From Octopus vulgaris (lineage: Eukaryota): a stretch of 64,000 bases of DNA. The stretch covers positions 35,464,001-35,528,000 of the forward strand of contig OX597830.1 of the NCBI GenBank assembly GCA_951406725.2. The letters run 5' to 3'. The notes under the pieces were generated by a model. It was not told where the DNA came from and searched no databases. It worked only from the letters and a program-made list of their open reading frames with translations. Below, one piece after another: positions 37,461 through 38,047 of this stretch. The first letter of the stretch is position 1. Each line of letters opens with the position of its first letter. A program made the position numbers and the translations under genes.

Positions 37461-37461
<1 letters not shown>

Positions 37462-38039
37462 GGAGGTAAGACAATTTTTTTCAAGTTTGTTGCACTCACG
37501 CATTTTTGTTAGTATATACGCGGTGAAGCTATACATTAGCGTCGTATTATTACGTTCGCTATTTTCCAGTAAATAACGGTACTTCGTTGTGCCATATATT
37601 TACTTCTATGTATAATTTTCCCTCACGGGCTATTCTTTACTGGAAAGCAATACTCTCGTATTGCATTACTATTTTATTGAAACTTCTTCACTGTTCTCGT
37701 TCTGTCAGCGTTTTAGCGTTTCAGTCGAGTGTATTGGCATTAATGTGGCAACATCTGAAATGTTGTCGTGGTATATGTTGGCTGATGAAGATAGATCAAG
37801 TATATGTGTGCAGGCATATCTTGAAAAATCTGAAACCGGTCCCGGTCCCACATTATCCCTTTCTAGGTGTTTCATCTTTCAGATGTTCTCCCTGGAGGTA
37901 AGACAATTTTTTTCTAAGTTTGTTTCACTCACGCATTTTTGTTAGTACATACGCGTTGAAGCTGTACATTAGCGTCGTATTATTGCGTTCGCTATTTTCC
38001 AGTAAATATCGGTACTTCTTTGTGCCATATATTTACTTC

Positions 38040-38047
<8 letters not shown>
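37461..38047 (+). mobile_element. Retrozyme-like non-autonomous element: 432-bp monomer, ~1.35 tandem copies, with a hammerhead ribozyme
   Basis: Direct repeats 37461-37614 and 37893-38047; HHR at 37775-37853; no credible ORF; flanked by (TA)n. Confidence 0.7.
37775..37853 (+). ncRNA. Type I hammerhead ribozyme motif, canonical core
   Basis: AUGU(U)GG-CUGAUGA-[AGAU..UCAAG.AUAUG...CAUAU-CUUGA..AUCU]-GAA-ACCG(GUCC)CGGU-C/CCACAU; distal 11-bp helix AACAUCUGAAA (37750-37760)/UUUCAGAUGUU (37877-37887). Confidence 0.8.

Follow-up and report, generated by a model that had tools for sequence, protein, structure and literature searches.

In our reading, the insert described here, which lies in an older SINE of Octopus vulgaris, is a single dispersed copy (1.36 units) of a non-coding, many-copy hammerhead family with a 432-nt unit. 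The family is likely a non-LTR retrozyme: its RNA is predicted to be cleaved into single units by the ribozyme, likely then closed into a circle and likely inserted into (TA)n through a Penelope-like element that supplies the reverse transcriptase and the nuclease. We put the probability of this reading at roughly three in four.

Within the window, the whole 64,000-nt stretch of DNA that was analysed, the insert spans 587 nt (37461-38047) and consists of repeat A, a 278-nt middle and repeat A', which amounts to 587/432 = 1.36 head-to-tail units (Table 1). Aligned over 155 columns, the repeats show 94.8% identity, with 7 substitutions and 1 indel between them, and the offset from A to A' is 432 at the start and 433 past the indel; the 3' boundary of the insert is blurred by the TA run. 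The GC content of the unit is 0.382, no Pfam family was found in the frames overlapping the insert and no paralog of the insert occurs elsewhere in the 64-kb window. The direct repeats of ~154 bp and the ~1.35-mer of a 432-bp non-coding unit described in the original prediction were thus recovered. The 5% difference between A and A' points either to an old copy or to a mixed template. Both repeats have the T of position 37509, where nearly all contig depth (see below) reads C, which fits a single template unless the species of the window differs from that of the contigs. The unit also carries AG/GTAAG splice-like donors at 37465/37466 and 37897/37898 and a pyrimidine-rich splice-like acceptor that ends at 37882, with an ATG directly after it. 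It can be read as a 417-nt GT...AG stretch with the ribozyme inside plus a 15-nt exon-like piece, and no clear branch point was seen for this stretch.

Table 1. Features of the insert, its ribozyme motif and the host SINE, in window positions.
Feature	Position	Strand	Basis or remark
Host SINE, 3' half	37195-37398	-	12 other matches in window; alignment with 7 uninterrupted copies
Host SINE central (CA)n(TA)n, left part, insertion target	37399-37460	.	Present in uninterrupted copies too
Repeat A, 5' copy of the unit's redundant part	37461-37614 (154 nt)	+	
One full unit, 432 nt, GC 38%	37461-37892	+	Predicted rod, long-range helices 37470-37528 / 37686-37767
11-bp distal complement, arms 37750-60 and 37877-87	37750-37887	+	Exact complement
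Type I hammerhead motif	37770-37857	+	Descriptor match, constrained fold
Hammerhead stem I	37770-81/37848-57	+	
Hammerhead core CUGAUGA	37782-88	+	
Hammerhead stem II, three segments, A-U first pair	37789-37831	+	
Hammerhead GAAA	37832-35	+	
Stem III, long form: 4 pairs and GUCC loop	37835-37846	+	Predicted cut after C37847
Repeat A', 3' copy, TA-like end running into target	37893-38047 (155 nt)	+	
(TA)n target, right part	38048-38102	.	
Host SINE, 5' half, tRNA-like head	38103-38267	-	Box A/B-like motifs near 38254 and 38213

Both flanks of the insert are (TA)n, the setting in which a target-site duplication (longer than 4 bp in non-LTR retrozymes that have one) was sought, and beyond them lie the two halves of a SINE, which we take to be an octopus element; each half has 12 other matches in the window, and the insert is antisense to it. 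Seven other copies in the window, when aligned, have an uninterrupted (CA)n(TA)n at this central place, in agreement with the proposed insertion into the (TA)n of a SINE. No tRNA gene was called by ARAGORN in the SINE head. The microsatellite lies mid-element in every copy aligned (37195-38267 and seven other sites), and hence provides a standing target for TA-seeking elements.

Part of the unit's stretch is contained in 20 of 24 listed sequencing runs (10 studies, four species labels, best share 0.55), and contigs from four of the 24 (X1, X2, X8 and X10, with species labels A, B, D and B) were aligned to one unit (37450-37892). None of the listed runs is recorded as RNA; X10 may be one, and its contigs are not read here as expression. 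Contigs matching the unit numbered 664, 839, 239 and 107, respectively; in every run they reach all 30 bins, and the majority differ from the unit of the window. A joint leading from the end of the unit back to its start (37892 to 37461) was present in all four runs (4, 3, 1 and 1 contigs), the loose contig ends that precede 37461 can mostly be recognised as the end of the unit itself, and the share of contigs continuing into unlike sequence was 0.01, 0, 0.02 and 0.01. As the contigs are short and none of those listed spans a unit, the joints look alike for 1.36-mers and long arrays; contigs give neither molecule ends nor strand, and depth is not used here as copy number. The unit is a closed, heterogeneous, many-copy, non-coding sequence across three species labels. 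With regard to circularly permuted start points, scattered loose ends were found among those listed at 37486, 37516, 37675 and 37697-37715, several of which may be indels or diverged subfamilies. A metagenome scan returned 13 loci, all of them chance matches of 19-24 nt, and prokaryote and viral collections gave 0 matches to a 25-nt pattern of the unit.

These contigs bear on two other origins of the insert. If the 154-nt repeat had arisen by local DNA duplication or by recombination of a satellite-like monomer, a more-than-unit RNA template would not be needed, and both the 5% divergence between A and A' and the microsatellite surroundings, which favour rearrangement, would be accommodated. 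However, the end-to-start joint recurs in divergent contigs of all four runs and is therefore a feature of the family, and the insert is set cleanly into a TA run that is unoccupied in the related SINE copies, which makes a local rearrangement very unlikely. It is harder still to credit a miniature LTR element of the TRIM or LTR-retrozyme type with 154-nt LTRs, despite the two direct repeats around a 278-nt core, the TG at the start of A and, on the minus strand, repeats that end in CA with a short purine-rich run, recognised by eye, before the second. The repeats run TG...TA, neither strand has the fixed TG...CA termini that the original prediction had set against a retrozyme, and no PBS-like TGG start lies behind the first repeat; LTR ends, PBS and PPT, scored by eye rather than against a tRNA set, were not seen. 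Moreover, the ribozyme is of type I and lies outside repeats A and A', and most of the loose ends noted above ahead of 37461 belong to the unit itself.

The complete hammerhead with a three-segment stem II and two CCGGTC hexamers that had been recognised in the unit was confirmed. Stem I comprises GG/CC, AUGU/ACAU and four further pairs (ten pairs in total), interrupted by two single-base bulges. No core residue is missing, U37846 and C37847 included, and the hexamers start at 37836 and 37842. A full hammerhead descriptor (four-pair stem II, stem III, UH and five-pair stem I) matched two sites in the window, one in the insert and one at 15523 on the minus strand, and none in 60 block-shuffled windows. 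No hammerhead was matched by Rfam, neither at the gathering threshold nor among the 28 matches obtained when E was relaxed to 10, which were mostly microRNA models on TA runs. The first pair of stem II, A-U, counts against the reading, as G10.1-C11.1 is described as highly conserved (PMC4209133). None of the listed family variants falls within the catalytic core; we estimate that this would occur by chance about one time in four and do not count it as evidence.

The 11-bp distal helix, previously considered to extend stem I, stood up in part. Its arms are exactly complementary, but they are separated from stem I by a multiloop and do not pair in the fold of the whole monomer, and family variants at 37756-37762 would break the helix. 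The helix would also have to compete with the rod of the unit and with another pairing by which the core would be blocked. Given the variants that would break the helix and its absence from the circle fold, we rejected the view that it is a permanent extension of stem I. One octamer occurs both upstream of the ribozyme (37753-37760) and in its core (37828-37835), with a complement behind the cut site at 37877-37884; predicted pairing of this complement with either copy may constitute an on/off switch, or the match may be due to chance.

Stem III exists in more than one form within the family. A short form, from which six bases are left out, was present in all four runs (3, 7, 4 and 2 contigs), and the check for the CCGGTC duplication suggested in the original prediction therefore returned both long and short forms. 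In each run, the short form is outnumbered by long forms with either a CC centre (T37840C, in 6, 19, 7 and 5 contigs) or a CG centre (C37841G, in 6, 10, 6 and 5 contigs). In no run does the summed depth of the long forms fall below that of the short form (5175/5046, 25362/10077, 717/457 and 284/63), although depth is not a copy number; T at 37840 is also read from short-form contigs that end early, so that no frequency is given for the exact UC form found in the window. The long stem III is a family trait and not a quirk of the copy in the window.

The forms differ in their predicted energetics. The short form has one pair and a palindromic loop, and the CG centre creates a perfect 12-base palindrome. 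Relative to the local minimum, the active monomer fold is predicted to cost 0.3 (UC), 1.5 (CC), 0.3 (CG) and 11.5 kcal/mol (short form), and in the circle the active fold of the window's long form lies 2.3 kcal/mol above the minimum. Cutting of the long form after 37841 was rejected on energy (11.5-11.9 kcal/mol). A double hammerhead is predicted to lie 9.1 (UC), 6.7 (CC) and 19.3 (CG) kcal/mol below two minimum-energy monomers and, for the short form, 2.7 kcal/mol above them, these dimer values being standard-state nearest-neighbour energies without core or tertiary contacts. The short form is thus predicted to need a partner for cutting, whereas the long forms are predicted to be dual-mode, able to cut alone or paired, rather than dimer-free. 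Two hexamers had been expected to allow a self-sufficient intramolecular stem III; the predicted competence as a monomer (0.3 versus 11.5 kcal/mol) agrees with this, but the long forms would still be competent as dimers. As their predicted dimerisation is no weaker than that of the short form, 'dual-mode' describes them better than 'converted', and the proposed conversion of the ribozyme by a micro-duplication has to be modified further, as the long stem is a trait of the family, many long copies have CC or CG in place of an exact second hexamer, and the direction of the change is only hinted at. Depth for C37840, taken without phase, is no lower than that for G37841 in any of the four runs; this agrees with the order UC, CC, CG and, by implication, with a duplication at the outset. 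The likely order is accordingly the short form, a six-base duplication giving the UC centre, CC and then CG; this direction is a hint only, as a deletion between the two CCGG would yield an identical short form. A fuller evolutionary series within one retrozyme family is conceivable, but we hold it to be doubtful: the six-base duplication would have enabled an obligate-dimer hammerhead to cut alone, two loop changes would have removed the leftover first cut triplet and rebuilt the 12-base palindrome, the dual-mode form would have overtaken the short one, and single dispersed copies would be able to cut host or SINE-antisense transcripts.

The unit as a whole also appears to be structured as RNA. 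The linear unit folds with a z of -6.05 (0 of 100 shuffles as good) and the circular unit with a z of -5.45 against 60 shuffles, with 62% of bases paired; the minus strand also folds well (z -3.95). The hammerhead core is mispaired in the predicted minimum-energy circle. Among the 40 listed family substitutions (of 60), 16 preserve a predicted pair, 9 disrupt one and 15 fall on unpaired bases, compared with 9.4 kept (P 0.005) and 15.7 broken (P 0.008) when identical changes were dealt to random places with the same base. Outside the ribozyme, 14 of the listed substitutions keep and 6 break a pair (P 0.02 and 0.004). The variants are linked, and one pair only has changes on both sides; they favour the predicted fold and offer support for, rather than proof of, selection on RNA structure. 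Together, the closed many-copy unit, the end-to-start joint in four of four runs and the fold with its variants uphold the retrozyme-like character first proposed for the insert.

Alternatively, the insert could be what 5' truncation has left of a long autonomous Penelope-like element, namely its terminal partial tandem (pseudo-LTR), and the unit would not exist independently as a circle. Its (TA)n target, its partial-tandem form, two inversion hints (each from a single contig, in X2 only) and the splice-like donor and acceptor motifs are all features of such elements according to PMC8557442, and retrozymes are reported to resemble pLTRs (10.64898/2026.07.22.740005). In addition, a multi-copy contig of X1 (346 nt, depth 299) aligns only over 37697-37779, where it has one difference, and the 263 letters upstream of this are unmatched; it may represent the junction with a longer parent element, or else a chimeric subfamily. 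Against this, the unit closes on itself in all four runs with 0-2% of contigs entering unlike sequence, the variants favour long-range pairing over the whole unit, and none of the 110 frames in the window (stop to stop, at least 70 aa, low-complexity frames excluded) contains a reverse transcriptase or GIY-YIG family, so that the long coding element, a fragment of which the original prediction had named as the contrary outcome, did not emerge from these frames. We therefore consider a truncated pseudo-LTR unlikely and continue with the non-LTR retrozyme.

How such a retrozyme might give rise to the insert can be outlined as follows. Read-through RNA of arrays would be cut after C37847 and the cut monomers ligated. 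A Penelope-like enzyme would prime at (TA)n, with reverse transcription starting at the UAUGUAUA-like stretch on the 38047 side through a TA-like match to the target, and cDNA synthesis would cross the ligated cut site and run 154 nt beyond its start, giving 1.36 turns. As the cut site lies inside the insert, the insert ends elsewhere and its length exceeds one unit, the template was more than one unit, either as a circle, as an uncleaved multimer or through a jump between templates. Reverse transcription around a circular or multimeric RNA, as first envisaged, is borne out by this anatomy as regards the more-than-unit template, but a circle is not singled out and a template jump serves equally well. 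In the published retrozyme model, the cDNA is expected to be longer than one unit (PMC7761336, PMC7229834), and (TA)n preference, partial tandems, inversions and 5' introns are described as Penelope-like traits (PMC8557442). The joint present in four of four runs fits head-to-tail units, in 1.36-mers as well as in longer arrays; the copy in the window has one ribozyme only and hence could not release a unit by itself. In Xenopus, only one of nine predicted retrozyme dimers was reported to cleave in vitro (10.64898/2026.07.22.740005).

Non-LTR retrozymes are described as 150-450-bp repeats with type I hammerheads, with circles shown in coral, mussel and axolotl and units of 220-240 nt, 350-390 nt and 330/350 nt, respectively (Cervera and de la Pena 2020, PMC7229834). 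Several traits described for these metazoan elements are shared by the octopus family, namely a type I hammerhead motif, a non-coding repeat of 150-450 bp, GC below 50%, many copies, a self-paired predicted circle and the lack of PBS and PPT, whereas the unit is near the upper size limit and the window's copy holds 1.36 units with one ribozyme. The class is already known, including from a mollusc (the mussel), and monomer-active invertebrate hammerheads have already been published, most invertebrate motifs reportedly cleaving as monomers (PMC7761336). By the norm given for metazoan hammerheads, helix III has 1-2 pairs and a palindromic loop (PMC4209133); in contrast, the long octopus stem III has four pairs, and its stem II is very long with an A-U first pair. 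Large helix III is described for fungal and protist Penelope elements, as is a 2-nt palindromic insertion in D. virilis (PMC4209133, PMC8557442). In axolotl, two families have one- and two-pair helix III (PMC7229834). The octopus short stem III is like that of axolotl HHR_Amex1 as described there, with one pair, a palindromic tetraloop and poor prospects as a monomer, but short and long forms belong to two families in axolotl and to one, six bases apart, in octopus.

Similarities also extend to elements tied to Penelope. Retrozymes have been linked to pLTRs, with single-ribozyme copies counted as inactive derivatives (Li, Clavereau, Pollet 2026, 10.64898/2026.07.22.740005), and the octopus family shares with those monomer derivatives and pLTR-related retrozymes the dispersed single-ribozyme copies and the proposed Penelope origin. 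That study included no mollusc in the text consulted (0 matches for Octopus, cephalopod or mollus); 'active' denotes two consecutive ribozymes there and the window's copy has one, and a candidate parent element was not found in the window. Penelope-like pseudo-LTRs, as portrayed in PMC4209133 and PMC8557442, likewise have a type I hammerhead, palindromic stem III, long stem II, (TA)n targeting, partial tandems and splice-like motifs, but the octopus unit has no adjacent reverse transcriptase or GIY-YIG frame and closes on itself. Plant LTR retrozymes are similarly non-coding and hammerhead-bearing with terminal direct repeats, but theirs is a type III ribozyme inside LTRs, accompanied by PBS, PPT and a 4-bp TSD, none of which was seen in the insert. 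A cephalopod retrozyme or an octopus 432-nt family was not found in the literature searched, and subscription papers, Repbase or the supplements of PMC7229834, PMC4209133 and PMC8557442 may list one.

The descriptor site on the minus strand belongs to a second, unrelated type I hammerhead motif (window 15140-15787, core at 15523), with a CUGAAGA core, a 69-nt stem II region and a two-pair stem III. This stretch starts right at a (TA)n and folds with a z of -4.6 on 20 shuffles; neither a direct repeat nor a paralog of it was found in the window, and it is likely the end of another Penelope-like element. A second SINE-like repeat (14900-15140), with six other matches in the window, adjoins it.

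The most worthwhile detail is the presence of short and long stem III inside one family. As the short and long ribozymes differ only by six bases in stem III, they provide a ready natural comparison, which tests whether dimer-dependence limits or regulates the spread of retrozymes. The 1.36-unit insert in (TA)n, in turn, may serve as a clean footprint for the hypothesis that Penelope-like enzymes copy retrozyme RNAs.
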